Below are positions 3-18,200 of a stretch of 64,000 bases of DNA, piece after piece. Position 1 is the first letter of the stretch, and each line of letters starts with the position of its first letter. The position numbers and the translations under genes were made by a program. The stretch covers positions 32,932 to 96,931 of the forward strand of contig CAVVSP010000010.1 of the NCBI GenBank assembly GCA_963750845.1, given 5' to 3'. This DNA is from an uncultured Acidobacteriaceae bacterium. GTDB lineage: Bacteria; Acidobacteriota; Terriglobia; Terriglobales; Acidobacteriaceae. Below the pieces are notes generated by a model. The model was not told where the DNA came from. It ran no database searches and saw only the letters and a program-made list of their open reading frames with translations.

Positions 3-1487
3 CGCGATGTGCTTACTAAGGAGCAAATCGCGCTGGCGCGTCCTGATGTGACGCACTTCAAATACGATCTGGCAGACGAATCCAATCGCGACTTGTCGCT
101 GGTGCCCACTCTCATGCGAGAGATGCTGGAGATGCTGGCATCGGGCGCGATCGCTCCGCTGCCGGTGAAGGAATTCGATAACCCGGGCGATGCGTTTCGT
201 TTCATGGCGCAGGCGCGGCATACGGGAAAAATCGCAGTGACGCGCCCAGGCGTCGTGCCTGATCCGATCGTGATCGACCCGGAGGCCACGTATTTGATCA
301 CGGGCGGCACTGGCGGTGTCGGTCTGCGTTTTGCGGAGTGGCTGGTAAGTCGCGGAGCCAGGCATCTTCAACTTCTGTCGCGAAGAGGCGGCGATGCAAC
401 CTCTGAAGCAGTCATCGCTCCGTTGCGAGCGAAAGGCGCGGACGTTCGCATTGCGCGAATCGATATTGCGGATGCGGCGGCGCTGAAGACCCTACTCGAA
501 GAAATTCCAAAGTCTGCGCCGCTCAAGGGCATATTGCATGCAGCCGGCGTGTTGGACGATCATAGCCTCCTGGGTCAGAGCTTTGCCTCCTTTGTTGAGG
601 TGGCCCGGCCAAAGTGGACTGGCGCGTGGAATCTGCATCTGCTGACGCGCGGTCTGAAGCTCGATTTTTTTGTGCTGTTCTCTTCCGCGACTGCGCTGAT
701 CGGCATGCCAGGTCAGGCCAATTACAGCGCGGCGAACAATATGCTCGGGGGACTCGCAGCGTATCGCCGTGGCCGTGGTCTGCCCGCACTCAGCATTGCG
801 TGGGGCCCCTGGGCGGGTGCCGGGATGGCAGCAGCTTTGCACCCGGCGGACTTCGGTTTCGGGTGGATCACTGCGGAGGAAGGAACGGCCGCCCTGGAAA
901 GATTGCTGACGACTGGCGAGGCCGAAGCGACGGTGCTGCCGGTGGCCTCATGGAATCGATTCGTAAGCCAGCGTTCTGCGGATGCGTCGGCCTTATTTTC
1001 TGGGTTGACGGATACATCGATACGCATAGCAAAGCTCGCCGAGAATCTTGTTTCGTCCCGGGAAAGCGAAGCGGAACGAAAGGCCAGCTTTGCCAAGCTG
1101 CTGCAGCAGGCTGGGCCTTCAGAACGGCGTGCGCTATTGACAGAACATCTGCGGCAACAGACGAGGCAGATTCTTTCGCTGACCACTGACAACGTGGTGG
1201 ACGAGGATGCGGCGCTGCATGATCTTGGCCTGGATTCGTTGATGGCCGTGGAACTACGAAATACGTTGCAGGTCTCGCTGGAGCGTCAGCTTTCCCCGAC
1301 TCTGGTGCTGGATTATCCGACACTGCGCGCGTTGCGGGAGAATCTCTTGACTGAAATGTTTGGTTCGCAAAAGGCACCAGACGCCGCCAGCGAATGGATG
1401 CACCAGATCGATGAATTGACTGACAGCGAAGCGGAAGCCTTGCTGCTGGAAGAACTGCAGAGGCCCGTCCATGCTGCAAAACGTTAA
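3..1487 (+). CDS. Type I PKS, C-terminal part (end of ER, then KR-ACP and C-terminal docking helix); 5' end lies outside the window
   Basis: The frame is open to the left edge. ER tail AFRFMAQARHTGKI; KR motifs ITGGTGGVG, HAAGVLDD (B-type) and YSAAN; ACP LGLDSL; acidic docking helix IDELTDSEAEALLLEEL. Confidence 0.95.
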   Translation, partial: RDVLTKEQIALARPDVTHFKYDLADESNRDLSLVPTLMREMLEMLASGAIAPLPVKEFDNPGDAFRFMAQARHTGKIAVTRPGVVPDPIVIDPEATYLITGGTGGVGLRFAEWLVSRGARHLQLLSRRGGDATSEAVIAPLRAKGADVRIARIDIADAAALKTLLEEIPKSAPLKGILHAAGVLDDHSLLGQSFASFVEVARPKWTGAWNLHLLTRGLKLDFFVLFSSATALIGMPGQANYSAANNMLGGLAAYRRGRGLPALSIAWGPWAGAGMAAALHPADFGFGWITAEEGTAALERLLTTGEAEATVLPVASWNRFVSQRSADASALFSGLTDTSIRIAKLAENLVSSRESEAERKASFAKLLQQAGPSERRALLTEHLRQQTRQILSLTTDNVVDEDAALHDLGLDSLMAVELRNTLQVSLERQLSPTLVLDYPTLRALRENLLTEMFGSQKAPDAASEWMHQIDELTDSEAEALLLEELQRPVHAAKR

Positions 1488-4400
1488 TCCGTTGCCTGCC
1501 GATATGCCCAACGCTGGTGAGCTGTCGCCGGTGAAACGGGCGCTGATCGAAATCCGGCATCTGCGTGAGGAGCTGGAAAAAAGCAAACGAGGCATGCATG
1601 AGCCAGTTGCCATTGTCGGCATGGCGATGCGGTTTCCTGGCGGCATCACGACGCCGGAGCGCTTCTGGGAGGCGCTGGCGGAAGGCGAAGATCTCATCGG
1701 AACAGTGCCAGCCGAACGCTGGGATGCCCGCGAGTATCTGAACACGGATCCCGATCATGCGGGAACCATGTACGACGGTCAAGGCGGCTTCCTGGCTGAT
1801 ATCGATGCATTCGATGCGGAGTTCTTTGGAATCAATCCCCGCGAAGCAGCAAGCATGGACCCGCAGCAAAGGATGCTACTGGAACTCACCTGGGAGGCTT
1901 TGGAGCGAGCGGCAATTGATCCAAAGGCGCTCTTCAATAGCGCTGCCGGTGTCTTTCTCGGTCTATCGAACTGCGACTACGCGCGGTACACAATGCGGGA
2001 TCCGCGGGAGATCGACGCTTATGCCAGTGTGGGCTGCACTTTGAGCATTGCGGCGGGACGTATTTCCTATTTTCTAGGTACCCACGGGCCAGCGATGGTT
2101 GTCGATACGGCATGTTCCTCATCGCTGGTAGCGCTCGATCTGGCCACGCAGAGTCTGCGCCGAGGCGAGATCGATCTTGCCATAGTCGGCGCCGCCAATC
2201 TCATCCTTACACCGGAGTACAGCGTCAGTTTCTCCCGCACACGGATGCTTTCTCCCCATGGTCGCTCAAAAACCTTCGATGCCTCGGCGGATGGTTATGT
2301 GCGGAGCGAAGGCTGCGGAGTCGTGATACTACGGCGGCTTGCCGACGCGAAACGCGACGGCGACCCTGTTCTGGCGAAGATCGTCGGCGTGGCTGTGAAC
2401 CAGGACGGACGGAGTGCAGGCATTACGGCCCCGAATGGCCCGGCGCAGGAAGCGGTAATCCGGGCGGCGCTTGACGATGCTCAGGTGGCTCCGACGGCGG
2501 TTAGTTTTGTTGAAACACACGGCACCGGAACGCCGCTGGGTGATCCGATGGAAGTGCAGGCATTGTCTGCCGTGTATGGAACTGGGCGCGACGGCGGAAC
2601 TCCGCTACACATCGGTTCGGTGAAGACGAACCTGGGACACGCCGAAGCGGCAGCCGGGATGGCCGGGCTGATGAAAGTGGTGCTCACCATGCAGCCAGGC
2701 CATGGAATCGCTCCGCATCTTCATTTCAAGGAGCCCAATCAGAAAATCGACTGGAAAAACCTGCCGATCAAGGTGCCGACGGCACTGACGCCATGGCCAC
2801 AAACGGACAGTGGAACTCGATACGCGGGACTGAGCTCATTTGGGTTCAGTGGAACCAACGCACACATAATTATTGCCTCTGCGGATGATGACGCTCCTGC
2901 CGCAGATGTGAAAGCTGGGCGCGACGATGCCGAGGCGGTCCTGGTGATCTCGGCATCGCATCCGGAGTCGCTGCGAAAACAAGCGGAGAGCTATACCGCG
3001 TTCCTTGAACAGACCACGGAGCGGTTTTCGGATATCTGTTTCACCGCTTTCACCGGCAGGGCCAGCCTGGAACATCGTCTGGCATTGCGAGCGCGGGATC
3101 CGAGGTCAGCGGCTTCCATGCTGGAACAGTGGCTTGCAGGAGAGAGTATCGCAGGGCTGGTATCGAAAGAATCGGCTCCCGACGTTGCAAAAGACAAGAC
3201 CATGCAGTTGCTCGTCCGGTATATCCAGGGCGAGTCGTTGAGCTGGGAAGATCTGCTCGCGGCAGGTGAACAGCGGCGCGTGGCGCTGCCTGTCTATCCG
3301 TTTCGCAAGATGCGCTATTGGTTTGGCCCGGATCCGAAGAAGAAGCGGCAGATGGATCGTGAGCGGATATGGCAAAGTGCGGTAGCTGCGGCTGAACTGC
3401 AAAGCCGTCAGGGACCCCTTGGATGGGATCCAGGATCGTATGCCGAGAGATGGTCGACCTTGCATCGACTTACGTTGGCGCATGCGCAAAATGTCCTGGC
3501 CGAAGCCGGAGCATTTCGACAACAGCAGCTTGTGAGTGCAGACGATGTGCTGTCACAGGGTGGTTTCCAGCCACTCTATCGCAAGCTGGTGCAGCGTTGG
3601 CTCAAAGGCCTGGCTTCGAGCGGAGCGTTGGTGGCCGAAGGAGATCGCTTCCGTGCACCGGCGGCTTTTGGTGCAGCATCGCTTGAAAGACACTGGAGCG
3701 AGACCGAACAACAGCTTTGGAACAATCCCGGGATGCTGGCGTATCTGCGGCAGTGCAGCGCCCTGCTCGGTGATGTGCTGACGGGAAGAAAGAGTTCGCT
3801 GGAGACACTGTTTCCTCAAGGATCGTTCTCCATCGCGGAGGGCCTCTACGAAACCGGTCCAGAAGCACGATTCCTGAATCCGATCGCCGCTGCCGCGGTG
3901 AATCAGGTCGCGCGAGGTCTGGGACAAAGACGCAACGCACGCGTATTGGAAATCGGTGGCGGCACCGGAGGAACGACTTCCGCGATTCTTCCAATGCTTC
4001 CTGCAGGGCAGGCCGAGTACTGGTTCACAGACGTCTCCGAGCTCTTTCTCAACCGAGCGCAACGAAGGTTCGGTGCATATCCTTTCGTTCACTATGCGTT
4101 ATTCGATCTCGATCGTCCGCTCGAAGAGCAGGGTATCGGCGCCGGGCAGTTTGATGTGGTCGTGGCGGCGAATGTCATCCACGCATCGCGCAATCTAAAC
4201 CTGGCGCTCGAGCGGGTGCGGCGATTGCTGGCACCGGGCGGAATCCTCGTGCTGCTGGAATGCACGACGCATCATAGCCATTTTGATATGAGTGTTGGGT
4301 TGATTGAAGGCTGGCAGCACTTCGAAGACGACATACGCCAGGAACATCCGTTGCTGCACGTCGAGCAGTGGAGGAATCTCCTCGAAGCAAACGGATTTTC

Positions 4401-5010
4401 ATCGATGATGGCTCTTCCCGAATTGGATTCACCCGCTTCCGCAGTTGGCCAACACATCCTGATTGCGCGAAGTCTAGAAGCAGGTCAACTCGACTCCGAT
4501 GCAACGTTCCAGAACTTTGTGGCGGATGTTGCGGCGTCGAGATCGAGCGAGCCGATGCAGCCGATCAGCATCGACGGGCGTGATGTCACCGACAGACTGC
4601 GCACGCTCTCTCCGAATGAGCGCGAACAAGCAGTCCTCGATCTTGTGCGGACAACAATCAAGCATGTCTTTAACCTGCCCCAGCGGGCCGAAGAACTGAC
4701 GCCTCGAGATCGGTTGAGCGACCTGGGAATGGATTCCTTGATCGCGCTCGAGTTGCGGGCGGAGCTGGCCAAGGTATTCGGACTGGAAGCCCAGATTTCG
4801 TCGACCATTGCGTTCGATACGGGCACGGTTGGGGAACTGGCCAAAGCTTTGCTGCGAGCAGCGGAAGCTCCCGGACGTGAGGAGATTCAGAGCAGCGAGG
4901 CGGAGGTCCAGAATCTCCCGTCAGTTGCGCAGGTGACGTTGGATGAGCTGAACGAGATGACGGACGAGGATGTGGAGCGGCTCCTGAGTGAGAGGTTGAG
5001 CAGGCGATGA
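1471..5010 (+). CDS. Type I PKS module KS-[no AT]-methyltransferase-ACP
   Basis: KS triad intact (DTACSSS, HGTGT, NLGHAE). The KS-AT linker runs directly into LPVYPF..RYW, with no GQG or GHSxG AT motifs. SAM motif VLEIGGGTGG plus NVIHA and GLIEGW (C-MT-like). ACP LGMDSL. Confidence 0.93.
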   Translation: MLQNVNPLPADMPNAGELSPVKRALIEIRHLREELEKSKRGMHEPVAIVGMAMRFPGGITTPERFWEALAEGEDLIGTVPAERWDAREYLNTDPDHAGTMYDGQGGFLADIDAFDAEFFGINPREAASMDPQQRMLLELTWEALERAAIDPKALFNSAAGVFLGLSNCDYARYTMRDPREIDAYASVGCTLSIAAGRISYFLGTHGPAMVVDTACSSSLVALDLATQSLRRGEIDLAIVGAANLILTPEYSVSFSRTRMLSPHGRSKTFDASADGYVRSEGCGVVILRRLADAKRDGDPVLAKIVGVAVNQDGRSAGITAPNGPAQEAVIRAALDDAQVAPTAVSFVETHGTGTPLGDPMEVQALSAVYGTGRDGGTPLHIGSVKTNLGHAEAAAGMAGLMKVVLTMQPGHGIAPHLHFKEPNQKIDWKNLPIKVPTALTPWPQTDSGTRYAGLSSFGFSGTNAHIIIASADDDAPAADVKAGRDDAEAVLVISASHPESLRKQAESYTAFLEQTTERFSDICFTAFTGRASLEHRLALRARDPRSAASMLEQWLAGESIAGLVSKESAPDVAKDKTMQLLVRYIQGESLSWEDLLAAGEQRRVALPVYPFRKMRYWFGPDPKKKRQMDRERIWQSAVAAAELQSRQGPLGWDPGSYAERWSTLHRLTLAHAQNVLAEAGAFRQQQLVSADDVLSQGGFQPLYRKLVQRWLKGLASSGALVAEGDRFRAPAAFGAASLERHWSETEQQLWNNPGMLAYLRQCSALLGDVLTGRKSSLETLFPQGSFSIAEGLYETGPEARFLNPIAAAAVNQVARGLGQRRNARVLEIGGGTGGTTSAILPMLPAGQAEYWFTDVSELFLNRAQRRFGAYPFVHYALFDLDRPLEEQGIGAGQFDVVVAANVIHASRNLNLALERVRRLLAPGGILVLLECTTHHSHFDMSVGLIEGWQHFEDDIRQEHPLLHVEQWRNLLEANGFSSMMALPELDSPASAVGQHILIARSLEAGQLDSDATFQNFVADVAASRSSEPMQPISIDGRDVTDRLRTLSPNEREQAVLDLVRTTIKHVFNLPQRAEELTPRDRLSDLGMDSLIALELRAELAKVFGLEAQISSTIAFDTGTVGELAKALLRAAEAPGREEIQSSEAEVQNLPSVAQVTLDELNEMTDEDVERLLSERLSRR

Positions 5011-8000
5011 CACAGACAGGCAAATCTGAGCAGTCTGGAGCGCAACTATCTCCATTGAAGCAGGCTTTTCTCGCTCTGCAAGCGGCGCAGTCCCGCGTGG
5101 ATGAACTTGAACGGGAACGCTCGGAGCCCGTCGCCATCATAGGCATCGGATGCCGTGTTCCAGGTGGCGGTGAGGGATATGAAGGCTTCTGGAAGCTGCT
5201 GCAAGAAAAAGGAATCGCCGTCAGCGATGGGATGGAGCGCCGGCTGACTTCCGTCGGCCGTAAGGTGCCGTTGCCCGAGGCCGCGCGATGGGCCGGCCTT
5301 CTGGACGAAATAGACGGCTTCGATCCGCAGCACTTCGGTATCTCGCCACGTGAGGCGGTCGGGATCGATCCGCAACAGAGGCTGCTTCTGGAGACATGCT
5401 GGGAAGCGCTTGAAGATGCTGGCGTAGACCCATTCTCGTTGTATCAGTCTCCTACCGGAGTTTACCTCGGCATCGCGACGCACGATTATGCGCATTTACA
5501 AATGCCGGGAATCGGCTTGGGGACGGTCAGTCCTCACTTCGCATCGGGAATTGCATCGAGTGTTGCAGCAGGCCGAATCTCTTATGTGCTCGGATTGAAT
5601 GGGCCATGTGTTTCCCTCGACACAGCCTGCTCTTCTTCGCTGGTGGGTTTGCATCTGGCGTGCGACGCCCTCCGCCGCGATGATTGCTCGATAGCGCTGG
5701 CAGCGGGGGTGAACGTGATCCTCTCGCCGGAGTATCCTATCGCTTTCGCTGAAACCGGCATGCTCTCTCCGCGGGGTCTCTGCCACACCTTCGATGAGGC
5801 CGCGGACGGTTTCGTGCGCGGAGAGGGTTGCGGTGTAGTGGTTCTCAAACGGCTGCGGGATGCCCAGGCATCCGGCGATCGCATTCTTGCAGTAGTGCTG
5901 GGTTCGGCGGTGAATCACGACGGCGCGGCGAGCGGACTGACCGTGCCTAACGGGCAGGCTCAGCAGGAATTGTTGCGGCAGGCTCATGCGAATGCGCGGG
6001 TGGAAGCGCGACAGGTTGGTTACGTCGAAGCGCACGGCACTGGGACTTCATTAGGCGATCCCATCGAGATTGAGGCATTAGGATCGGTCTTCGGGGCAGG
6101 ACGTAAGCGGGAGCACCCGCTCCTGCTGGGATCGGTGAAGGCGAACCTCGGGCATCTGGAGGCCGCAGCAGGCATCGTCGGAGTCATCAAAGTCGTATTG
6201 AGCCTGCAACACGGAGAGATTCCTCCTCAGCCACGATTGAATCGTCTGAACCCGCATGTTCGCTGGGGTGAGCTTCCGCTCGAGGTCGTGACAGATCAGC
6301 AATCGTGGCCCACGATCGAGGGTCGCCGGATTGCAGGTGTGAGTTCCTTCGGGTTCAGTGGAACGAACGCGCACGTTGTCCTGGAAGGCTTCGCAGAAGC
6401 CGCTCTGCCGGCCCCGGAGGTGCGGCGCGCAGAAGTGCTTGTCCTTACCGCCAGGACCGCGACCGCGCTGCGTCAACTTGCAGAGCGGTATGTGCAGTTT
6501 CTGGAGCGCACCGAGGAAGATTGGGGAGATATCTGTCACACGGCTGCGTCAGGCCGCGCGGTCTTTGGCGAGCGCCTCGCGGTTGTTGCAGCCGATAAAG
6601 AGGCGGCCGCGGATTCTCTGAGGGACTGGATCGAGAGGGGTTTGGAATCGGATGCGGTCTTCGGAGGCAGAGTTCGTGCAGGCGATGCAGTGACGCAGCG
6701 GAAGCTGGAACTGCCTGCGGCGGGTATCACCACCGATAACGAATGGTTGTCTCTGGCAAAGGAAGTCGCGGTTGCGTTTGTCCACGGCATCCCAGTCGAT
6801 TGGAATGCATGGAGGAGGGGTCTTAGTCGGCGCAAGGTGGCCCTGCCGACTTATCCCTTTCAACGCGAGCGGTATTGGGTGGAAGCTCCACGACGCAGAA
6901 ACGAGATTGCGGGCGAAGCGACAGGCCGGATTTTGCTTGGAAGTCGTCTACCGGTGGCCGGAGTGGGCGCGCAGTTTCAAACCGAGCTGTCGGTTGAGGG
7001 CGCGAACAGTTGGATCTCCGAGCATGTGATGGGCGGGCGCACAGTCTTTCCCCTGACGGGACACATTGAACTGATGCTCGAAGCTGGGGCGGAAGCTTTG
7101 GGCGCGGGAGCGATGCTGGAGGATATCGCGCTGCACCGGCCGCTGGTGGTCGATGGCGCGAGCACGATACAGGTGGTTGTAGGGAACGAGGCCCAGGGGC
7201 GCACCCATGTGCAGTCATACGTAGCGGATGCGGATGACGGCTGGCTGCCGATCTCTGAGGGATGGCTTTGCTCGGAGGACAAGAGCAGAAAAGACCATGT
7301 CGAGGATCGACTGGACCTCGAAGCGATTCGCACTCGTTTAGGCGAGCCGCGAGATGCTGCGGAATTCTATGCGAGTGCCGCCACCGACGGAGCCAACTTC
7401 GGCCCACGATTCCAGGGGATTGAACGGTTGTGGACGAGTACGCATGAGGCCTTGGCCGAGGTTGGCGTGCGGGCTGCGGAAGAGAACTATGTATTCGCAC
7501 CTTGGCGTCTGGATGCTTGCCTGCAGTTGATCGCAGCGGTGCGTCCAGATGCGGATATGTATCTGCCTTCGAACGTCGGAGAGATTCGTCTCTACGGAAA
7601 GCCTGGCGAGTATTGCTGGAGTCATCTCCGCAGCCGCCAGACCGACGCCGATACCCTCGCCGTGGATGTGACAGTGGCACATCCCAATGGCAGCGTGCTG
7701 GCAGTCGTTCGCGACATGTTATTCCGCAGGTTTACTCCAGGAAAGGTGGATACCACTTCCTGGTTCTACCGTCTGGCGTGGAAGGTGGCGACGGCTGAGA
7801 TCACGGGGCAGCCTGCGATCCAGCGCGCGATATTGATCGGGCGCTCTTGCAGAATGCCGGAAATAGCAGCATCTTTGCGCGAAAAAGGTGTTTCTGTGCA
7901 GATCTTCGCAGACGCCACGCAACTGCAGTCTTCGGAGGCCGATGTGGTGCTCTGTTTCTTATCGAAAGATGCGAAAGATACTCCGCTCGAAATTGGCCAT

Positions 8001-10589
8001 GTCGTCGAGCGAGCGGAAGAGCATGTGCGATTGCTGCTCGAAACTGTGCATAGGCTGCTGGATGCCTCCACGAAGCGCACACCACGCGTCTATGTTGTGA
8101 CGGAAGATGCATGCGCGGTGCGACCGGAGACATCTGACGCTATCAGCCTGATTCAGAGTTCTTTGGCGGGTGCAGTGATTTCCATCGGATTGGAAGCTCC
8201 GGAGTTGCGTTGCACCCTGCTCGACTTAAGCAGTACCGAGAGCGGTCTTTCAGCGGAACAGATTGCCGCTGAAGTCATGTCGGAAGCAGATGATCTTCGC
8301 GTGGCATTTCGCTCCGACCAGCGATATGGAGCCCGGCTGGAGCGAGTGCCGCTCTCTGAAATGTCTCGCGGAGAGCAACAGGCAACAAGGCTTGTACTCG
8401 GGACGGGCATCGAGGGGCTCACGTATGAGACTGTGGAACGGCAGCCGCTGCAGCCCGATGAGATAGAAATTGAGGTGCGAGCGACCGCGCTCAACTTCCG
8501 CGATGTACTGAAGGCGACGGGCCTACTGGAGCACGCCGGACCAATCGGAACAGATTGCAGTGGCGTGATTTTGCGGACTGGCGCTGCCGTCACCGCGTTT
8601 AAGATAGGCGATCCCGTAGTCGCGATTGCTCCTGGATGCTTCGCGAGCCATGTGGTCACCGTGGATGCACTCGCAGTGCGCAAGCCCGATGAGCTTTCCT
8701 TCGAGCAGGCGGCGGCGCAGACCGTTGCGTATCTCACTTCCGACTACTGCTTGAACGAGTTTGCCCATATCCGGAAAGGAGAGCGTGTGTTGATCCACGC
8801 CGCGGCGGGAGGCGTCGGTTTGGCTGCAGTGCATTTGTGCCAGCGTGCCGGGGCTGAGATATTCGCGACAGCCGGAAGCGACCAGAAGCGCGAGTATCTC
8901 CGCAACCTGGGTATCGAACATGTCCTGGACTCCCGCAGCCTGGATTTCCGCAACCAGATCATTGGCGGCGTAGACGTGGTCCTGAACTCATTGGCTGGTG
9001 AAGCGATCGACGCCGGACTGGATCTCCTGCGACCGAACGGACGATTTATCGAGCTGGGCAAGACGGACATCCGCGAAGCCGGCGCCATTGAAAGACGCTG
9101 GCCGGGTATCCAGTACATTGTGGCCGACCTCACGGTTCTGTTCGAGGAACGGTCTCCCTGGATTCGCGAACACTTGACGGCCCTATTGAACGAGATTGCG
9201 CGAGGGGATCTACCGGCCTTGCCGTCGGCGGTCTACGAGGAACGAGAGACAAAGCAGGCTTTCCGCCACATGGCCGCTGCAAAGCATATCGGCCGGCTGG
9301 TGATCCGTTCCGCGGTGGTGGACTTCGCCGGGGGCGCACATCTGATCACGGGCGGCTTGCGCGGCATTGGGCTAAGGCTGGCGGAGTGGCTGGTAGAGCA
9401 GGGCGCCCGCGATCTCGTCCTCGCCGGAAGGCAGCAGCCATCGGGAGAAGCGCTCGCAGTAATTAGGCAGATGGAGATTTCTGGAGCGAAGGTGCGCGTG
9501 GTGCAGGGGGATGTGGCGGAGTTCGCATCTGCACAACGCATGGTAGCCGAAGCGGGAGCATCGCTGCGAGGAGTGTGGCACTGTGCCGGCGTAATCGACG
9601 ATGGAGCGCTCGCCGAGCAGTACTGGGAGCGGTTCGCCAGGGTGATGAACCCGAAGGTGGAAGGCAGTTGGAATCTGCATGTGCTGACACGCGAGTTGCG
9701 GCCTGAGTTCTTCGTGCTCTTTTCTTCGTGGGCATCGGTTGCGGGTTCACGAGGACAGGCGAACTACAGTGCCGCAAATGCGTTTCTCGACGGGCTCGCA
9801 ATGCATCGCAGGACGGAGGGGCTGTCTGCGCTTTGTGTGGATTGGGGTGCCTGGGGCGAGAGCGGTATGGCTGCGGGGGCGACCATGCAGCGGTACCTGG
9901 CACGGGCAGGCATGGAGAGTATGCGGCCGCAGGATGCGTTTACTGCGCTCATCTCTGCGCTGCGCACCGGAGAGTCGCGCCTGGCCATTGCCTCGATACA
10001 GTGGCCCATCTATCTGGAGCAGGTTCCGAGTTCGCAGCGTAGCTTTTATGCGGAACGGATCGAAGAGGTCGCGTCCGCAGGCAAGCTTCGGCAGGGGCTC
10101 CCGGCGGCTCGCTCCGGCGGCAAATCTCAGCCTTCGGCTGATGCACGAGCATTGCAAGCCGGCCGCGTCCTTTCGGAGATACTCGCGTCTCCTGCATCCG
10201 CGCGGCGCGATACGCTGCAACGCGTTATTGAAGATGTCGTGCGCCGAACGCTGGATCTGCGCCCATCTGACGAGATCGATCCGGAAGTGACCTTTAACGA
10301 TCTCGGGATGGACTCTCTGCTGGCGATCGAATTACGCAACAGCTTGTCCACGATTTTGGAGCGGAGGCTGCCTTCGACGCTGCTTTTTGATTATCCAACC
10401 TTGCGCAAGTTGGCCCGGTTCCTGGAGGAGGAGCTTTTCCCGAATGTCTTGCGGGAGGAGACCGCCATGGTAACTCTCTCCATCGCGCCGGAGCCGGATG
10501 ACGAGATAGAAACGCTGAGCATTCTCGATGAGATTGAGCAGCTGTCAGATGAAGAGGTGGATTCGATTCTGGGGAAAGGTGCTTACTGA
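5007..10589 (+). CDS. Type I PKS module KS-[no AT]-DH-ER-KR-ACP (fully reducing)
   Basis: KS DTACSSS, HGTGT, NLGHLE; no AT motifs. DH HVMGGRTVFP and LDACLQ; ER LNFRD and LIHAAAGGVG; KR GGLRGIG, VIDD, YSAAN; ACP LGMDSL. ATGA overlap with the previous gene. Confidence 0.94.
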   Translation: MTQTGKSEQSGAQLSPLKQAFLALQAAQSRVDELERERSEPVAIIGIGCRVPGGGEGYEGFWKLLQEKGIAVSDGMERRLTSVGRKVPLPEAARWAGLLDEIDGFDPQHFGISPREAVGIDPQQRLLLETCWEALEDAGVDPFSLYQSPTGVYLGIATHDYAHLQMPGIGLGTVSPHFASGIASSVAAGRISYVLGLNGPCVSLDTACSSSLVGLHLACDALRRDDCSIALAAGVNVILSPEYPIAFAETGMLSPRGLCHTFDEAADGFVRGEGCGVVVLKRLRDAQASGDRILAVVLGSAVNHDGAASGLTVPNGQAQQELLRQAHANARVEARQVGYVEAHGTGTSLGDPIEIEALGSVFGAGRKREHPLLLGSVKANLGHLEAAAGIVGVIKVVLSLQHGEIPPQPRLNRLNPHVRWGELPLEVVTDQQSWPTIEGRRIAGVSSFGFSGTNAHVVLEGFAEAALPAPEVRRAEVLVLTARTATALRQLAERYVQFLERTEEDWGDICHTAASGRAVFGERLAVVAADKEAAADSLRDWIERGLESDAVFGGRVRAGDAVTQRKLELPAAGITTDNEWLSLAKEVAVAFVHGIPVDWNAWRRGLSRRKVALPTYPFQRERYWVEAPRRRNEIAGEATGRILLGSRLPVAGVGAQFQTELSVEGANSWISEHVMGGRTVFPLTGHIELMLEAGAEALGAGAMLEDIALHRPLVVDGASTIQVVVGNEAQGRTHVQSYVADADDGWLPISEGWLCSEDKSRKDHVEDRLDLEAIRTRLGEPRDAAEFYASAATDGANFGPRFQGIERLWTSTHEALAEVGVRAAEENYVFAPWRLDACLQLIAAVRPDADMYLPSNVGEIRLYGKPGEYCWSHLRSRQTDADTLAVDVTVAHPNGSVLAVVRDMLFRRFTPGKVDTTSWFYRLAWKVATAEITGQPAIQRAILIGRSCRMPEIAASLREKGVSVQIFADATQLQSSEADVVLCFLSKDAKDTPLEIGHVVERAEEHVRLLLETVHRLLDASTKRTPRVYVVTEDACAVRPETSDAISLIQSSLAGAVISIGLEAPELRCTLLDLSSTESGLSAEQIAAEVMSEADDLRVAFRSDQRYGARLERVPLSEMSRGEQQATRLVLGTGIEGLTYETVERQPLQPDEIEIEVRATALNFRDVLKATGLLEHAGPIGTDCSGVILRTGAAVTAFKIGDPVVAIAPGCFASHVVTVDALAVRKPDELSFEQAAAQTVAYLTSDYCLNEFAHIRKGERVLIHAAAGGVGLAAVHLCQRAGAEIFATAGSDQKREYLRNLGIEHVLDSRSLDFRNQIIGGVDVVLNSLAGEAIDAGLDLLRPNGRFIELGKTDIREAGAIERRWPGIQYIVADLTVLFEERSPWIREHLTALLNEIARGDLPALPSAVYEERETKQAFRHMAAAKHIGRLVIRSAVVDFAGGAHLITGGLRGIGLRLAEWLVEQGARDLVLAGRQQPSGEALAVIRQMEISGAKVRVVQGDVAEFASAQRMVAEAGASLRGVWHCAGVIDDGALAEQYWERFARVMNPKVEGSWNLHVLTRELRPEFFVLFSSWASVAGSRGQANYSAANAFLDGLAMHRRTEGLSALCVDWGAWGESGMAAGATMQRYLARAGMESMRPQDAFTALISALRTGESRLAIASIQWPIYLEQVPSSQRSFYAERIEEVASAGKLRQGLPAARSGGKSQPSADARALQAGRVLSEILASPASARRDTLQRVIEDVVRRTLDLRPSDEIDPEVTFNDLGMDSLLAIELRNSLSTILERRLPSTLLFDYPTLRKLARFLEEELFPNVLREETAMVTLSIAPEPDDEIETLSILDEIEQLSDEEVDSILGKGAY

Positions 10590-10606: not shown

Positions 10607-13600
10607 ATGGCATTGCGAAGTGACGAAGCATCGAACGCATTTCTGGAGCGCATCCAGAGCCTCTCCCCGAAGCGGCTGGCGCTGTTGGCGGCAGAACTGG
10701 AACGTCGCCTGGCGGCGCGGGAGAACAGTGTCCCCGAGCCGATTGCGGTCATCGGTATGGCCTGCCGGATGCCCGGAGGCGCGACCACTCCGGAGGAATT
10801 TTGGCGGGTTCTGGAGAGCGGCAAGGATACGGCTGCGAAGGTTCCGATCGAACGATGGGACGCCGATGCATTCTACGACCCGCAGTTGGATACGCCAGGC
10901 AAATCGATCACGACGAACGCGAGCATGCTTCGCGGCATCGATCTGTTTGACGCTGCCTTCTTCGGAATTTCACCTCGCGAGGCTACGGGGATCGATCCAC
11001 AGCAGCGAATGCTGCTCGAGGTTACGTGGGAGGCACTTGAAAACGCGGGCGAACGAGGAGAAGCCATTGAAGAGAGTGCGACCGGGATTTATGTGGGTGT
11101 CAGCTCCAGTGACTTTCAGCATCTGGTGCTGCAGGCCGATGAACGTACCCTGAACGCCTATGCCGGCTCCGGGATCGCGAACTCGATGCTATCCGGCAGG
11201 CTTTCGCACTACCTGGGTGTGACGGGTCCAAACCTTACCGTCGACACGGCATGTTCAGCTTCGGCGGTAGCCATTCATCTCGCCTGCCAAAGTCTGCGCA
11301 CGAACGAGTGCAACCGGGCACTGGCTGGCGGCGTAAATCTATTCCTGCTCGCGGAGGGCCTGATCCTTCTCTCACAAGCGCACATGCTCGCTCCCGATGG
11401 GCGATGCAAAGCCTTCTCTCGCCAGGCGGACGGTTTCGGCCGAGCGGAAGGGTGCGGAATGCTGGTGCTGAAACGGCTTTCGGATGCTCGTGCGGATGGC
11501 GACCGTATTCTCGGGCTGATTCGCGGCACGGCTATCAATCATGACGGAAAGAGCAGTGGATTGACGGCTCCGAACGGGCCGGCGCAGGAAGCGGTGATTC
11601 AGACCGCGCTGTCACAAGCGAGATTGAAACCCGGACAAGTTGATTATGTGGAAGCACACGGAACAGGCACGGTCCTTGGCGACGCTATCGAACTGGGCGC
11701 GTTGGGGCATGTCTTCGGCAAGGAACACGATGCGGCGAACCCTCTCTTGCTGGGCTCGGTGAAGACAAATGTCGGCCATCTGGAAGCTGCCGCAGGAGTG
11801 ACCGGCGTGATGAAAGTCTTGCTGGCTTTCCAGCATGAGTCGCTCCCCCCCCATTTGCATCTTTCCGCGGACAATCAGAACGAAGCCTTACTGGGATTGC
11901 CATTCGAGATTCCGATAACTTCTAAACGCTGGTCGCGCTCGCAGCGTCCACGCGTGGCAGGTGTCAACTCTTTCGGATTCAGCGGCACGAACTGCCATCT
12001 GGTTCTTGAAGAGCCGCCACTGGTGGAACAGGCAGAAAGCGGACCGGCGTTTGCCGTGGAGCTGATCACCGTTTCGGCCAAGACGCCAACAGCACTGACC
12101 GCGCTTTGTGGACGATATGCACGTTTTCTGAGAGATAACCCGGCGGTTTCTCTGGGCGACTTCGGATATACGGCGAACGCCTGCCGCACAACCTTTCAGC
12201 ATCGCGTAGCTGTGATTGCACGCTCTGTCGAAGATGCAGCAGCCCAGTTTGAACAGATCAGTTCCGGGAAAGTGGAGCAGTCGTCGAGCTATCGCTTCGC
12301 GGCGGGCTATAAAGCTCCTCCCCTGGCGTTCTTATTTACCGGGCAGGGTTCGCAGTATTCGGGGATGGGTCGAACTTTCTATGAGCGAAATGCAGCCTTC
12401 CGGTCCGCAATGGACAGGTGCGATCGGGCGCTCACCGGTAGAAAGCATCGACTCTCGGCTGTCGTCTTCGGCGATCCTGCTGTTCCGCGCGAGTCAATCG
12501 ACGATACGACCTGGACGCAGCCAGCGCTCTTCGCCTTTGAATACTCCCTGGCAATGATGTGGCAGTCGTGGGGCGTGCGTCCCTCGATGGTCCTGGGTCA
12601 CAGCCTGGGAGAATATGTGGCTGCATGCATCGCAGGCATCCTGACCCTTGAAGAAGCTTTGACTCTCGCTGCCGAGCGCGGACGCCTGATGGGTGAGCTA
12701 CCTCGGAGTGGAAGCATGCTCGCAGTGCGTGCAGGTGAAGACGCGATCATGGCAGTCGTAGGAGCACTGCCTGCAACGGTCTCAATTGCAGCGATGAATG
12801 GGCCCGAAGCCATTGTTCTTTCCGGCAAAACGGACGATGTAACAAAACTGCACGATCTTCTTATGGCGAAAGGCATCCGCTCGCAGCCACTGACTGTATC
12901 GCATGCATTCCACTCTCCGCTGATGGAGCCGATGCTGGATGAATTTGAGGGGCAGGCAGCGAAGCTGACGTATCGGCCTCCCGAGGTCGATTTTGCGTCG
13001 AATGTGACGGGCCAGATGCTTACTCCTGGTGAACCGATCGACGCTGGTTATTGGCGAAAGCACGTTCGCGGGACAGTGAAATTCGCTCAGGGAATGAAGG
13101 CGTTGCTGGAGCAGAAGCCCGGTGTCGTGATCGAGATAGGGCCCAATCCGATCCTGCTTGGCATGGCGAAGGCGGCGCATCCAGAGCTGACGCTGCCGTG
13201 TGTCCCAACGCTGCGTCGTGGTAAGGACGAGTGGCAGTGCGCCTTCGAGGCTTTGCAGCAGATATACCTGGCTGGAGCACCGATTGAATGGAGCGGTGTT
13301 TACCGTGATCGGTTGAAGCAAAAGCTCGTTCTGCCGACATATCCATTTCAGCGCGAGCGTTATTGGGCGGCGGTGACACCGAAGGCTGCAAGAACGGCTG
13401 TCGCTTCTGAGTCTGCAGAAAGCACGGTTGAACGGATTGAGCCGCGCCTTTATCGAGTGGAGTGGACCACGGCTGATCCGAGCCGCGTGAAGACAGAGAA
13501 GACACGGTCAGTCGTCCTGGTGGGTGATGCTCTAGAGAAGATTGAGGTAGGGAAGGCACTTCGCGACGCGGGCCTTGTGGTGCAGGATCTGCCAGTTGCC

Positions 13601-15226
13601 GGATCGTTCTTTTCGGGAAGCACCTCAAGTGATCTAATTCGAGACCGCGAATTCCTCAAGGAATACCTGCGCGGAATCGATACGCCACAGGTAGTTCTAC
13701 TGTTGGCGAGTCGTCCTGAGACGGAGAATCTTCCAGAGGCGGTGCTGCAGAGCGCGACTACCGTTCTGGCGGCAGTGCAGGAAGCCCAGGACAGCAACGC
13801 GGAAGAGCCGGAGCTCTGGCTGATCACGCGCGGAGCTTTTGCCTGCTCGCCGGCCGATCGTATAGCGCTCACCGCCAGCGTGGCGGGCGCCATCGCGAAG
13901 GTATCGCGTGTCGAGAACCCAGGCGTGCATATTTACCAGGCGGATTTGTCCCTCGAACCGACAATCGACGATCTCTCACAACTCGCCAATTTGTTGTGCA
14001 AGGGAACAGTGGAACATACGGTCGCGCTTCGCGAGGGGACGGTTCGTGTTCCGAGGTTGGTGAATGATGACGGACAACAGACAGGACGACTCAAGATCGA
14101 AGCCGGTGCCGCTTACCTGGTAACGGGAGCGTTCAAAGGTTTGGGCCTGCGCACGGCACAATGGCTGGCGGAACGCGGGGCGAGAGAACTCTATCTCGTC
14201 GGACGCAGCGAGCCCTCTGCCGTAACGCGGGAAGAGCTGGATCGTCTCGAACGAGCGGGCGTACGAGTGCATGCAGTTATCGCTGATATCTCAAAAAAGG
14301 AAGAATTCGCTCGTCTTTCAACCCAAATCGTCGAGAATGGTTCCGAGCTGCGCGGTATCCTGCATGCTGCCGGCACACTCGATGACGGTATTCTGATGCA
14401 GCAGACGCCGGAGCGCTTTGCGACGGTCTTTGCTCCCAAGGTTTCAGGTGGATGGTTCCTGCACGAGTTCTCGCTTCAGTATCGGCTGGATTTCTTCGTG
14501 CTATTCAGCTCGGCTGCCGCACTACTTGGCTCGGCGGGACAATCCAACTACGCAGCAGCGAATGCGTTTCTCGATGCACTGGCCGAGTTGCGGCATCAGC
14601 AGGGCTTGCCCGCAACTGCTGTCTCCTGGGGCGCTTGGTCGGAGATTGGAATGGCCACGCGCGGACTTGCCGCTCGCCGCAGCGTCGGCAACGGCATTGG
14701 CAGCATCTCGCCGGAAGAGGGCATGGCGTTGCAGGAGCGAGCCATCCTGAGCGGACTCCCCACGGTTGGGGCGTTGGCCTTCGATTGGAAAAAGCTCTTC
14801 TCGCTGCGAACCGTGCACCATGACTGGCCGCTTCTGCAGAAACTGGCGGCGAATGCCGGTGCGTCGCCCAGTGTTGAGCGTGCTGTCTCTCTGGCCTCGG
14901 TCGTGGAGCAAGCACCCGCCGATGGCCGACTGCATGCGATCAAGGAGTATTTGAGCGCGCGGATCGCGTCAGTTCTGATGCTGCCATCGAGCTACGTTCT
15001 GCACGAAGATCAGCCGTTTGCCGAACTTGGACTTGACTCACTGATGGCGCTTGAGTTGAAAAATGAACTGCAATCATCGGCAGGGGCAGCTCTTCCGCCA
15101 ACATTTCTATTTGAATACCCAAATCTAGGTCTTGCGGCGACTTTTCTGGATGCATTGATGGCGGGAGCCCGCAGGACCGGATCGGCGGAAGTCCACGCTA
15201 CGGGCTATGAGGAGATTGTGCTGTGA
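10607..15226 (+). CDS. Type I PKS module KS-AT(malonyl)-KR-ACP
   Basis: GGAGG RBS. KS DTACSAS, HGTGT, VGHLE; AT FTGQGSQ, GHSLG, HAFH (malonyl-type); KR TGAFKGLG (slightly atypical Rossmann loop), TLDD, YAAAN; ACP LGLDSL. Ends GYEEIVL. Confidence 0.95.
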   Translation: MALRSDEASNAFLERIQSLSPKRLALLAAELERRLAARENSVPEPIAVIGMACRMPGGATTPEEFWRVLESGKDTAAKVPIERWDADAFYDPQLDTPGKSITTNASMLRGIDLFDAAFFGISPREATGIDPQQRMLLEVTWEALENAGERGEAIEESATGIYVGVSSSDFQHLVLQADERTLNAYAGSGIANSMLSGRLSHYLGVTGPNLTVDTACSASAVAIHLACQSLRTNECNRALAGGVNLFLLAEGLILLSQAHMLAPDGRCKAFSRQADGFGRAEGCGMLVLKRLSDARADGDRILGLIRGTAINHDGKSSGLTAPNGPAQEAVIQTALSQARLKPGQVDYVEAHGTGTVLGDAIELGALGHVFGKEHDAANPLLLGSVKTNVGHLEAAAGVTGVMKVLLAFQHESLPPHLHLSADNQNEALLGLPFEIPITSKRWSRSQRPRVAGVNSFGFSGTNCHLVLEEPPLVEQAESGPAFAVELITVSAKTPTALTALCGRYARFLRDNPAVSLGDFGYTANACRTTFQHRVAVIARSVEDAAAQFEQISSGKVEQSSSYRFAAGYKAPPLAFLFTGQGSQYSGMGRTFYERNAAFRSAMDRCDRALTGRKHRLSAVVFGDPAVPRESIDDTTWTQPALFAFEYSLAMMWQSWGVRPSMVLGHSLGEYVAACIAGILTLEEALTLAAERGRLMGELPRSGSMLAVRAGEDAIMAVVGALPATVSIAAMNGPEAIVLSGKTDDVTKLHDLLMAKGIRSQPLTVSHAFHSPLMEPMLDEFEGQAAKLTYRPPEVDFASNVTGQMLTPGEPIDAGYWRKHVRGTVKFAQGMKALLEQKPGVVIEIGPNPILLGMAKAAHPELTLPCVPTLRRGKDEWQCAFEALQQIYLAGAPIEWSGVYRDRLKQKLVLPTYPFQRERYWAAVTPKAARTAVASESAESTVERIEPRLYRVEWTTADPSRVKTEKTRSVVLVGDALEKIEVGKALRDAGLVVQDLPVAGSFFSGSTSSDLIRDREFLKEYLRGIDTPQVVLLLASRPETENLPEAVLQSATTVLAAVQEAQDSNAEEPELWLITRGAFACSPADRIALTASVAGAIAKVSRVENPGVHIYQADLSLEPTIDDLSQLANLLCKGTVEHTVALREGTVRVPRLVNDDGQQTGRLKIEAGAAYLVTGAFKGLGLRTAQWLAERGARELYLVGRSEPSAVTREELDRLERAGVRVHAVIADISKKEEFARLSTQIVENGSELRGILHAAGTLDDGILMQQTPERFATVFAPKVSGGWFLHEFSLQYRLDFFVLFSSAAALLGSAGQSNYAAANAFLDALAELRHQQGLPATAVSWGAWSEIGMATRGLAARRSVGNGIGSISPEEGMALQERAILSGLPTVGALAFDWKKLFSLRTVHHDWPLLQKLAANAGASPSVERAVSLASVVEQAPADGRLHAIKEYLSARIASVLMLPSSYVLHEDQPFAELGLDSLMALELKNELQSSAGAALPPTFLFEYPNLGLAATFLDALMAGARRTGSAEVHATGYEEIVL

Positions 15227-18200
15227 AGCCGTTGATTCAATTTCTATCTGATCTTCGCGCCAAGGACGTCTTACTCAGCGTCGACGGCGATAAGTTGACC
15301 TGCAATGCGCCAATGCATGCAATTACTCCGGAAATCCGACAGGAATTGAGCGATCGCAAAGAAGAGATACTTAGCTTTTTACGAAGTACACAAGGTTGGA
15401 AGGCCGCGGAGACAGGGCCAAGCTCCTCGCGTGATTTGCCGCTCTCGCGCTCCCAACAACGGATCTGGTTTCTGGACCAGCTCGATCCTGGAAATCCGGC
15501 TTATAACATTGTGATCCCTCTCTGGCTCACCGGCAGTCTGGACCGTGATGCCATGGAGCGTGCTCTTCGCGCCGTGATCGGGCGTCACGAAGCTCTTCGG
15601 ACTGGTTTTTCGCAGCGCGGCGGCCGGCCTTTTGCATGGATCACCGGCCAGAAGTCGTGGCAGATGGAGGTCACCGACCTGCGGCATCTGACGGAACCGG
15701 AAGCCGAAACAGAGGCGGCACAGCTTGCCTGGCATGCGGGTCGCTGGTCTTTCGACCTCGAAAAGCCTCCGCTCTTCCGCGCTACCCTCTATCAAGTCAC
15801 CTCTGAGCGATATCTGCTTTGTCTGGTGGTTCAGCACATCGTTGCCGATGGCTGGTCTCTCGGCATCCTTTCTCGCGAGATGTCCGAACTTTATTGCGCA
15901 TTTGCGACTGGCGCATCTTCGCCTTTGCCCGATCCGAGCTTTCAGTATCGTGACTACGTGCGCTGGGAGCAGGAAGAAGGGCAGAGGCTGGCGGAGCAGC
16001 AGCTACCGTACTGGCTGAAGAAGTTACATGGAGACCTGCCGAGTCTGGAGATTCCGCCTGACCGGACTCGTCCGATCCTGCAGAGTCTCGACGGTGGGCG
16101 ACATATTGTCGATATCGACGGCGATCTTGCGGACCAGCTTCGCGTACTCAGCCGGCAGATGGGCGCAACACTTTTTACCGTGTTGCTAGCCGCATTCAAG
16201 GTCCTGATGTACCGCTATACCGGCACCAGAGACGTCATTGTCGGAAGCAACACGGCGAATCGTCCGAGACAAGAGTTCTCCACACAGATCGGCTTTTTCG
16301 TAAATAACATAATTTTGCGCAGCGATCTGAGCGGCAACCCCACCTTCGCCGAGTTGGTTGCGCGCGTGAAGGAGACGACCGGATCTGCTTACGCGAACCA
16401 GAATGTACCCTTCGACTTGTTGGTTGAGAAGCTGCATCCTGAGCGCGCCACGGGCCATCGCAGCACGTTGGCTCAGGTGATGTTTACGCTGGAAAATCTG
16501 CCGCTACCGGATTTGGATCTTCCCGGGCTAAAATCCCGGCCCGACCATTTCGATTTTGGAGTGGCCGGAGCTGATCTTGCGGTATTGCTCTGGCCCGTTG
16601 GCAATGGGTATCGATGTGAGTTCGAGTACAGCAAGGATTTGTTTGACGAAACCACAGTCCGACAGTTGCAGGAACATTATCTGCGATTGCTGAAAGAGGT
16701 GGTGGCAAATCCGGGCGCCCCAATCGAAACGTATCCGCTGCTGAGCGATAACGAACGTGCGCAGCTTGTAACCGAGTGGAACCAAACCGCTCATCCGGGG
16801 CCGGGCTATCCGACTGTAGCAGATTGGTTCCGCGCGCAGGTGGCGCTGCGGCCAAATGCGATTGCGGTGGAGATGGGCGACCGGCAACTTAGCTACGCGA
16901 AACTGGACGCTTTGTCTGACCGTATGGCGAGTGCATTGCAGCAACGCGGCGTCGGACGAGAGATAGTGGTGGGTCTCTATGTGGCGCGCAGTGTAGAGAT
17001 GATGATCTGCCTGCTGGGGATTCTGAAGGCGGGAGGAGCATATCTGCCTTTGGATCCGGCGTTCCCGGCGCAGCGAATTGAATACCTGATCCGAGACTCG
17101 GCCGTGGGTCTGATCGTAACCGAGAAGAGCCTCGAGACTTCGTTGCCCGAGAGCGGCGCAGAGGTGCTCCTGATGGAGCAAGCGCTGGCGTCCGAAACTG
17201 AAAAAGCGGCAGTAGAGCCCGCACGGGCAGAGGATTTGGCCTATCTCATCTATACGTCAGGTTCGACGGGGCAGCCTAAGGGAACTGAGATCACGCACGG
17301 ATCGCTAGTGAACTTGTTGGATTCGATGCTGCGGGAACCGGGACTGAGCCACGGGGACACTCTGGTCGCGGTCACGACATTGTCATTCGACATCGCGGGT
17401 CTGGAGTTGTTTGGTCCACTGGTAAGTGGCGCGAGGCTGGTTCTGGCGTCGCGAGAGCAAACGCTGGATCCGGTCGATCTAGCGGAGTTACTGGAACGCA
17501 GCGGCGCCACGGTGCTTCAGGCTACTCCGTCGACATGGCGAATGCTGATGGAATCCGGTTGGCTCGGGAAGCGCGACCTGCGGATGTGGTGCGGGGGCGA
17601 GGCGCTATCGGCGGAGCTGGCGGATAATCTGCTAACACGTGGGCGGGAGCTTTGGAACCTGTATGGTCCGACAGAAACCACGATCTGGTCGGCGGCGCAC
17701 CGGGTGAGCAGCGGCGAAAACCCTGTTCTTATCGGCCGTCCTATTGCGAATACACGGATGTATATCCTCGACAACCATGGCGATCCAGTGCCGACGGGCG
17801 TGAACGGAGAACTCTACATCGCCGGACATGGCGTGGCCCGAGGTTACCGGAACCGCGCTGAGCTGACGGCAGAACGATTTCTGCCAGAGCGATTTATGGA
17901 CGACGAGCGCATGTATCGGACGGGAGATATGGCGCGGTACCGTCGAGATGGGCAGATTCAACTTCTGGGGCGGACCGATCAGCAGGTCAAACTGCGCGGC
18001 CATCGCATCGAGCTTGGAGAAATTGAGGCGGCACTGGAACGCCATGCAGCCGTACAGCAGGCAGTCATTTCAGTGCGGGGACAGGATGCGGATCGGCGTC
18101 TGGTGGCGTATGTTCGGCTGGACACCGCGAGTGTGCAGAGCGACGATTTGCGGGCATGGCTACAGGAGCGGCTTCCGGAATATATGGTGCCGGGTGTGTA

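Follow-up and report, generated by a model that had tools for sequence, protein, structure and literature searches.

The DNA analysed here, hereafter the window, is a stretch of 64,000 nucleotides (G000:C10:32932-96931) from a 5.1-Mb genome in 39 contigs that is 80.8% complete and whose close relatives are Acidobacteriaceae. Annotation of the window with Pfam, together with the 33 kb that precede it, revealed a co-directional assembly line on the plus strand, the genes of which we call A to H. Genes A to F and H code for PKS modules and gene G for an NRPS module. The first module, KS-AT-ACP, is that of gene A (L006:6956-9847), which in this assembly carries an apparent frameshift in the region L006:6883-6905. 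It is followed by gene B (L006:9844-13626), coding for an AT-less KS-linker-KR-ACP protein, and gene C (L006:13629-19418), coding for an AT-less KS-LD-DH-ER-KR-ACP protein of 1929 aa. Gene C starts upstream of the window, at G000:C10:28629, and its 3' end, encoding the KR and ACP, occupies positions 3..1487 of the window, where the Acyl_transf_1 profile has no match. Next come gene D (1471..5010; P0001, 1179 aa), coding for an AT-less KS-LD-cMT-ACP protein, and gene E (5007..10589; P0002, 1860 aa), coding for another AT-less KS-LD-DH-ER-KR-ACP protein.

The AT domain reappears in gene F (10607..15226), a KS-AT-KR-ACP module whose AT, at ~12329-13258, carries the motifs GHSLGE and HAFH. Gene G (15223..18564) codes for a C-A-PCP protein with a TubC-type N-terminal docking domain, and gene H (18564..23132) for a KS-AT-KR-carrier protein with a KS of the post-NRPS hybrid type and an AT at ~20175-21032 harbouring the motifs GHSLGE and NAFH. 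Divergent genes upstream of the line encode a type II thioesterase, a PPTase and a C-A-PCP-TE NRPS that also has a TubC-type docking domain.

The AT-less run thus comprises four consecutive modules, B to E, flanked by the KS-AT-ACP module of A and the KS-AT-KR-ACP-type modules of F and H. The line has three ATs for seven PKS carrier domains, and four of its seven PKS modules have no AT. An earlier note on this DNA had described two AT-less modules, those of D and E. The loss of the AT was borne out, and the count has to be raised to four, as genes B and C, which precede D and begin upstream of the window, are devoid of an AT too.

Anatomy and conservation of the AT-less modules

The Pfam profiles ketoacyl-synt, Ketoacyl-synt_C and KAsynt_C_assoc and the CurL-like/RhiE-like KS-AT linker all match the proteins encoded by D and E. 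Acyl_transf_1 does not match B, C, D or E, all of which retain the linker domains, whereas it matches the sister genes F and H with 205 and 169 bits, respectively. In gene D, the KS (1600..2727) has its catalytic residues Cys215, His350 and His390 in place. The site of the missing AT follows at 2866..3321, where the KS-AT linker is fused to the post-AT linker LPVYPFRKMRYW. In P0001, the KS-AT linker runs from VLVISAS at about residue 489 (nt ~2935) to HRLAL, ending at about residue 540, and LPVYPFRKMRYW begins at residue 606 (nt ~3286). A C-methyltransferase (3910..4398; Pfam Methyltransf_12/23/25) and an ACP (4642..4851; motif LGMDSL, Ser1089) complete the module. Gene E is built likewise. 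Its KS (5124..6233) has Cys208, His343 and His383, and its KS-AT linker is fused at the site of the missing AT (6375..6878) to the post-AT linker LPTYPFQRERYW, which begins at residue 613 of P0002. Embedded DH, MDR-type ER and KR domains (6933..9857; Pfam PKS_DH_N/PS-DH, ADH_N/ADH_zinc_N and KR) and an ACP with the motif LGMDSL (10224..10424) follow. The linker motifs quoted in the earlier note are therefore found in P0001 and P0002 at the positions it gave, and its description of the two KSs as catalytically intact holds. The Cys-His-His triad and the ACP serine are present in every AT-less module.

This linker anatomy had also been offered as evidence for the nature of the modules, a use that it does not allow. 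A KS-AT linker followed by LPTYPF..RYW is generic to trans-AT modules: a P-x-Y-P-F motif lies 130-177 aa past the end of the KS in 16 of 18 reference trans-AT KSs, and the corresponding offsets are 141 aa in D and 157 aa in E. Because those references share the motif offset, the anatomy by itself is uninformative on a recent deletion. For D, the place of the missing AT shows in a comparison with G114_1485, a KS-AT-cMT-ACP protein of 1485 aa that belongs to a different genus of the family. The two proteins align end to end with 44.8% identity over 1158 pairs, and the sole large gaps, 306 aa in total, fall between residues 559 and 583 of D, where the AT is located in its relative.

Homologues of D that are similarly AT-less number ~100, with 50-94% identity, and the named ones all belong to Acidobacteriota (Acidobacterium sp. 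S8, Acidicapsa ligni, Silvibacterium and Terracidiphilus). The KS cysteine, both histidines, the ACP serine and motif I of the methyltransferase are 100% conserved in the 87 full-length AT-less D homologues. As the earlier note had proposed, orthologous clusters were also compared. Nine orthologous Acidobacteriaceae loci in species-representative genomes, including that of the cultured Acidobacterium sp. S8, have the AT-less modules in the order B-C-D-E followed by the AT-bearing F. Relative to the closest orthologue (L019), C, D and E have dN/dS values of 0.17, 0.22 and 0.14, respectively, and their KS domains have values of 0.04-0.09. Orthologous clusters whose proteins are no more than 55-64% identical share the AT-less state, which is old, stable and under purifying selection. 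The term 'snapshot' of a cis-to-trans transition used in the earlier note is unfit, since diverged clusters share this state and it is under selection.

Affiliation of the KS domains and probable traces of AT loss

The best single-domain PDB matches of the AT-less KSs are to CurL (538-569 bits) and DEBS (449-485 bits), and the KSs of trans-AT systems among the PDB chains (PksL, PksJ, RhiE, OzmH and others) score no more than ~400 bits. The top PDB match, 7zma, with 676 and 713 bits, was considered as a close trans-AT relative and rejected. Its score is misleading because it adds up two KS domains of the same chain; the isolated KS4 (7zmc) gives 357-373 bits. The NCBIfam models did not discriminate between cis- and trans-AT KSs.

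Two trees were built, in line with the phylogeny that the earlier note had suggested. An IQ-TREE analysis of 88 KSs included two trans-AT reference sets, namely a multi-KS AT-less megasynthase of Serratia marcescens MSU97, which we take to belong to an oocydin-type cluster, and an AT-less PKS encoded within the same family of acidobacteria (G046:C5). The KSs of A to F fall within a clade with cis-AT KSs (support 99), and both trans-AT sets lie outside it. A FastTree analysis of 383 KSs used as an unselected reference 150 representatives of giant PKSs (86 all-AT-less, 53 all-AT and 11 mixed). They came from a whole-library search ranked by summed score, which selects giant multi-KS proteins, and hence they are not nearest neighbours. 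All 106 KSs of the all-AT proteins and the KSs of A to F are united in one clade of 183 KSs (support 0.92), to which the all-AT-less proteins contribute only 5 of their 190 KSs. The earlier view that these KSs are of the cis-AT type is upheld by both the PDB scores and the trees, and sequence comparison places them outside the trans-AT clades.

Relationships within the line point in the same direction. The KS of D groups with those of KS-AT-cMT-ACP modules from the same bacterial family (support 92 and 88). C and E have sister KSs (support 100), although the modules upstream of them differ, one being KR-only and the other cMT-only. So far, the AT-less modules of the line represent three or more lineages, namely B, C together with E, and D. 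The phylogeny of trans-AT KSs tracks the type of substrate rather than module duplication (PMC7930024); the sisterhood of the C and E KSs despite different upstream chemistry is thus the duplication pattern of cis-AT systems and not the substrate-sorted pattern of trans-AT systems. In addition, C and E have an MDR-type ER embedded in a DH-ER-KR loop, in the cis-AT style.

Module C probably retains a decaying relic of an AT. In G000, L019 and S8, an extra stretch of 87 residues separates its linker domain from the post-AT linker (P0124 560-646; L006:15306-15566). Part of this insert aligns to the nucleophile-elbow region of the AT profile (positions 77-101), with the GHSxG motif destroyed. Its AT-HMM score is 7.3 bits in G000, a value reached by none of 2000 shuffled sequences, and 2.0 bits in L019, reached by 20 of 2000; that of S8 was not significant in the same control, and the copy in G000 was the only one to attain significance. 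A search with Pfam detected no AT in the insert, nor did a profile of the insert against the ORFs of the genome, and hhalign aligned it to the AT with P = 7e-4 but a probability of only 27% and an odd output. With a dN/dS of 0.385, the insert changes more rapidly than the sequence on either side of it, and it is missing from the six other orthologues. No such relic was seen in D or E. In the six genomes lacking the insert, C and E have almost identical linker segments, which suggests gene conversion, a process that could spread an AT-less linker from one module to another.

Two further genera have related clusters (G064:C1:567-600 kb; G114:C1:3.44-3.48 Mb) with one AT-less module each. They had been considered as all-cis orthologues of the present line and were rejected as such, as they are related without being strictly orthologous and each has that AT-less module. 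Loss of the AT within cis-type lines is recurrent in databases, given that 25 of the 173 uncut cis-clade KSs are without an AT and that 11 of the 150 giant proteins of the reference set are mixed. The derivation of the AT-less modules from cis-AT ancestors by loss of the AT, as put forward in the earlier note, gains support from where the D-type KS falls in the trees, from the AT-sized gap in D and from the probable relic in module C.

Possible donors for the ACPs of the AT-less modules

A PF00698 scan of the whole G000 assembly (80.8% complete) identified four ATs. Three are those of A, F and H, and the fourth is an ORF of 312 aa on contig 24 (G000:C24:572780-573718). The latter is an equivalog-level FabD (TIGR00128, 376 bits for a cut-off of 261) and adjoins plsX. 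The earlier note had reported no stand-alone AT in the window, and this holds, FabD excepted, for the 233-kb contig and the entire assembly. Five genomes bearing orthologous clusters have the three in-cluster ATs and one FabD-sized AT ORF each. Acidobacterium sp. S8 and G121 have exactly these four, and the other three also have ATs inside other large PKS ORFs. Hence, no dedicated free-standing AT was detected in G000, at its 80.8% completeness, or in the five other genomes. We also found no discrete AT within 10 kb of two other AT-less proteins of the cis clade (P0164 and P0116), whose contigs are short. The AT of A is methylmalonyl-like, with the motifs GHSMGE and VASH and best PDB matches to DEBS AT3, Lsd14 and MAS; that of F is malonyl-type (GHSLGE, HAFH), and that of H has GHSLGE and NAFH. 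The line contains neither a tandem nor an additional AT.

As only FabD stands alone, the ACPs of the AT-less modules must be loaded in trans, in agreement with the proposal of the earlier note, and FabD is the best candidate donor because the scans yielded only in-line ATs and FabD. B to E are best explained as functional extension modules that descend from ordinary cis-AT modules minus the AT domain. They retain the KS, both linkers (KS-AT and post-AT), the cis-style reductive loop and the ACP, and we propose that their four ACPs are malonylated in trans, most likely by FabD, the housekeeping malonyl-CoA:ACP transacylase. The methyl branch introduced at module D would stem from the SAM-dependent cMT rather than from methylmalonyl-CoA, and the presence of a cMT inside this AT-less module fits a malonyl-only supply. 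We assign this reading, in which FabD is reached by elimination, a probability of about 0.55.

It is possible, if doubtful, that one of the in-line ATs acts in trans on the four orphan ACPs in addition to its own, in which case that of F would be the likeliest, followed by that of A. In all six genomes the cluster comes with the three in-line ATs without exception, and the motifs of the F domain are those of a malonyl-type AT. In Archangium, a cis-AT line with an AT-less module and a two-AT module makes its product (PMC13454183), and the G064 and G114 clusters have one AT-less module beside AT-bearing ones. However, the present line has no such spare AT, the orphan ACPs are located on four separate polypeptides, and the methylmalonyl-like AT of A (VASH) would be a poor match to the cMT in module D.

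A dedicated free-standing trans-AT, encoded in the unassembled ~19% of the genome or far from the cluster, is improbable. The incompleteness of G000 leaves room for it, and pathways differ in this respect, since the spiruchostatin and FR901375 clusters carry their own AT and romidepsin biosynthesis uses FabD1 (10.1101/2025.03.13.642940). Nevertheless, the cluster itself is where the gene of a dedicated trans-AT normally resides, and the 233-kb contig has none; moreover, no discrete AT other than the FabD-sized ORF is apparent in the five other cluster-bearing genomes, one of them that of a cultured isolate.

It is very improbable that B to E are canonical trans-AT modules recombined into a cis-AT line to form a hybrid of the kirromycin type. 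They do resemble trans-AT modules in lacking the AT while keeping the linker domain and LPTYPF, and the acidobacterial family includes a true trans-AT-like PKS (G046:C5). Nevertheless, both trees place their KSs in the cis-AT clade, C and E have the embedded MDR-type ER in a DH-ER-KR loop, their KSs are sister duplicates that are not sorted by substrate, and D is collinear with its KS-AT-cMT-ACP relatives. Finally, in spite of the frameshift in gene A and of the many MAGs among the related genomes, an assembly or sequencing artefact, or modules that are decaying and skipped, is hardly credible, because the same architecture is shared by nine orthologous loci in independent genomes, ~100 protein clusters and the 87 full-length homologues, with intact frames, invariant catalytic residues and dN/dS values of 0.14-0.22. 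Taken together, explanations other than FabD, an in-line AT or an unseen discrete AT are quite unlikely.

We regard as unlikely a further scenario, in which a trans-AT system has arisen independently from a cis-AT line by graded AT loss, with the AT of F or A as a shared loader. If it were true, the graded series would run from one AT-less module in the G064 and G114 clusters to four in the present line, with a relic in C. An embedded cis-AT (that of F or A), and not FabD, would then serve five ACPs on separate proteins, and the line would illustrate, as a natural intermediate, the way in which trans-AT systems emerge.

Comparison with known systems and implications

The closest parallels to the arrangement that we favour, supply of B to E by FabD, are AT-less modules of mainly NRPS lines. 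In pseudotetraivprolide biosynthesis, transacylation by FabD was demonstrated with in vitro kinetics for the ACP of PipC, an AT-less module (PMC12828459). Reconstitution of the romidepsin pathway showed that DepB and DepC are supplied by FabD1 (10.1101/2025.03.13.642940), and a role for FabD was inferred for BrnF of barnesin (PMC13096860). Like B to E, these proteins have no AT, they have kept the linker (AT-docking) region, and they occur in genomes devoid of a typical trans-AT. In those cases the malonyl units come from the FabD of primary metabolism, whereas for B to E we infer this origin. PipC, DepB/DepC and BrnF also represent one or two modules each; B to E, in contrast, are four consecutive modules, of which two are fully reducing with an embedded ER and one has a cMT, in a line that keeps three cis-ATs, which could stand in for FabD. 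A run of four modules with fully reducing members is absent from the known FabD-served cases, which are single modules in NRPS-PKS hybrids.

Mixed cis-/trans-AT lines produce kirromycin and enacyloxin, and like the A-H line they combine AT-bearing and AT-less modules. Kirromycin biosynthesis reportedly involves dedicated discrete ATs, and the AT-less part of its line is said to have trans-AT-type KSs; in contrast, the KSs of B to E are of the cis-AT type, and no discrete AT was found for them. Both enacyloxin and oocydin have been listed as trans-AT systems (PMC7930024). Canonical trans-AT PKSs such as those of bacillaene and oocydin (PMC7930024, PMC9491710) share with B to E the KS, the linker domain, the LPTYPF..RYW motif and the absence of the AT, and, as in module D, their methyl branches are made by cMTs. 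Unlike them, the A-H line has neither a free-standing AT nor an AT-AT-ER protein, its ER domains are embedded rather than trans-acting, and the KSs of B to E lie outside the trans-AT clades, with relationships that reflect module duplication. In three respects that characterize canonical trans-AT systems, namely a dedicated AT, the KS clade and the evolutionary pattern, B to E appear to differ from them. Of the features of cis-AT lines, the KS clade and the embedded-ER loop are present, but not an AT in every extension module. On these sequence features, B to E are cis-AT-derived modules in a mixed line, even though they would function in the manner of trans-AT modules.

In Archangium violaceum, the cis-AT PKS of bgc34 has no AT in module 3 and two ATs in module 1 (PMC13454183). 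That line makes its product with a single AT-less module and a spare in-line AT, whereas the present one has four AT-less modules and no spare. The related G064 and G114 clusters share their module types with it (KS-AT-ACP, KS-[AT]-DH-ER-KR-ACP, KS-[AT]-cMT-ACP and NRPS), and the D-type KSs group together. There, however, only the KS-DH-ER-KR-ACP module is AT-less, and the cMT module and the one after it keep their ATs.

Mixed lines were already known, as were modules served by FabD (PMC12828459, PMC13096860, 10.1101/2025.03.13.642940) and the sporadic occurrence of an AT-less module in a cis-AT line (PMC13454183). What is unusual here is the run of four AT-less modules, two of them fully reducing, its conservation throughout a bacterial family, the availability of both AT-bearing relatives and a probable relic, and the existence of a cultured carrier. 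The locus offers a conserved natural case of cis-AT modules that work without an AT, including fully reducing ones with an embedded ER, and the AT-bearing relatives allow direct comparison with the AT-less modules. For PKS engineering, it supplies natural deletion boundaries together with a candidate supply route, through FabD or a cis-AT acting in trans. Because Acidobacterium sp. S8 is cultured, the question of how the ACPs are loaded is directly testable. The cluster is widespread in soil Acidobacteriaceae, where it encodes an as yet uncharacterised polyketide-peptide assembly line, and its history bears on the repeated rise of AT-less, trans-AT-like architectures through domain loss.

Start of the line and chain release

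The first module of the co-directional PKS-NRPS line (genes A to H) is gene A, which codes for a KS-AT-ACP protein at positions 6956-9847 of L006, the stretch overlapping the window start. Its KS has an intact Cys and is not a KSQ, and its AT is methylmalonyl-like (motifs GHSMGE and VASH). Neither a loading domain nor a FAAL was found near gene A. The gene is frameshifted in this assembly, upstream of the window (L006:6676-6956; G000:C10:21676-21956 in the source genome): the KS N-terminus (MSNAERT..GGFLTE) is in a different frame and meets the main frame within L006:6883-6905. The orthologues in Acidobacterium sp. S8 and genome G121 are unbroken ORFs of 1063-1092 aa. Either a sequencing error or a genuine lesion could account for the frameshift.

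At the other end of the line, gene H has no terminal TE. Divergent genes on the minus strand (L006:3-6169, running on into the adjoining L005) code for an NRPS of the form C-A-PCP-TE that carries a TubC-type docking domain, along with a type II thioesterase and an Sfp-type PPTase. This NRPS-TE protein is likely the missing release module for gene H.

Sequence traces in AT-less modules C and E

In gene C the linker domain is separated from the post-AT linker by an 87-aa insert (residues 560-646; L006:15306-15566, upstream of the window), found only in the source genome, the orthologous locus L019 and S8. It contains a probable decayed AT active-site segment (WRSWGLDP..IDHPSL..AAAG), and the AT-HMM score of the source genome's copy was matched by none of 2000 shuffles; Pfam and profile searches of the insert were negative for AT.

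In six orthologous clusters (L020-L024 and L026), the segments of modules C and E from the linker to the DH start are nearly identical, whereas their KS domains are not, a pattern that points to intra-cluster gene conversion between the two modules.

AT-less modules in other lines

Two related Acidobacteriaceae PKS-NRPS lines (G064:C1:567-600 kb, L064-L066; G114:C1:3.44-3.48 Mb, L067-L069) have exactly one AT-less module each, KS-DH-ER-KR-ACP, the others, including KS-AT-cMT-ACP, being AT-bearing. Among 150 giant PKS representatives (P0125-P0274), 11 combine AT-bearing and AT-less modules within one polypeptide, as in P0170 (AT, none, none, AT), and a small number of proteins that lack AT altogether (P0125, P0164 and P0219) have cis-clade KSs. 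The KSs of a multi-KS AT-less PKS from the same bacterial family (G046:C5:1-25000, L038-L050) group with oocydin-type trans-AT KSs. Judging from this grouping, Acidobacteriaceae also harbour genuine trans-AT-type lines.
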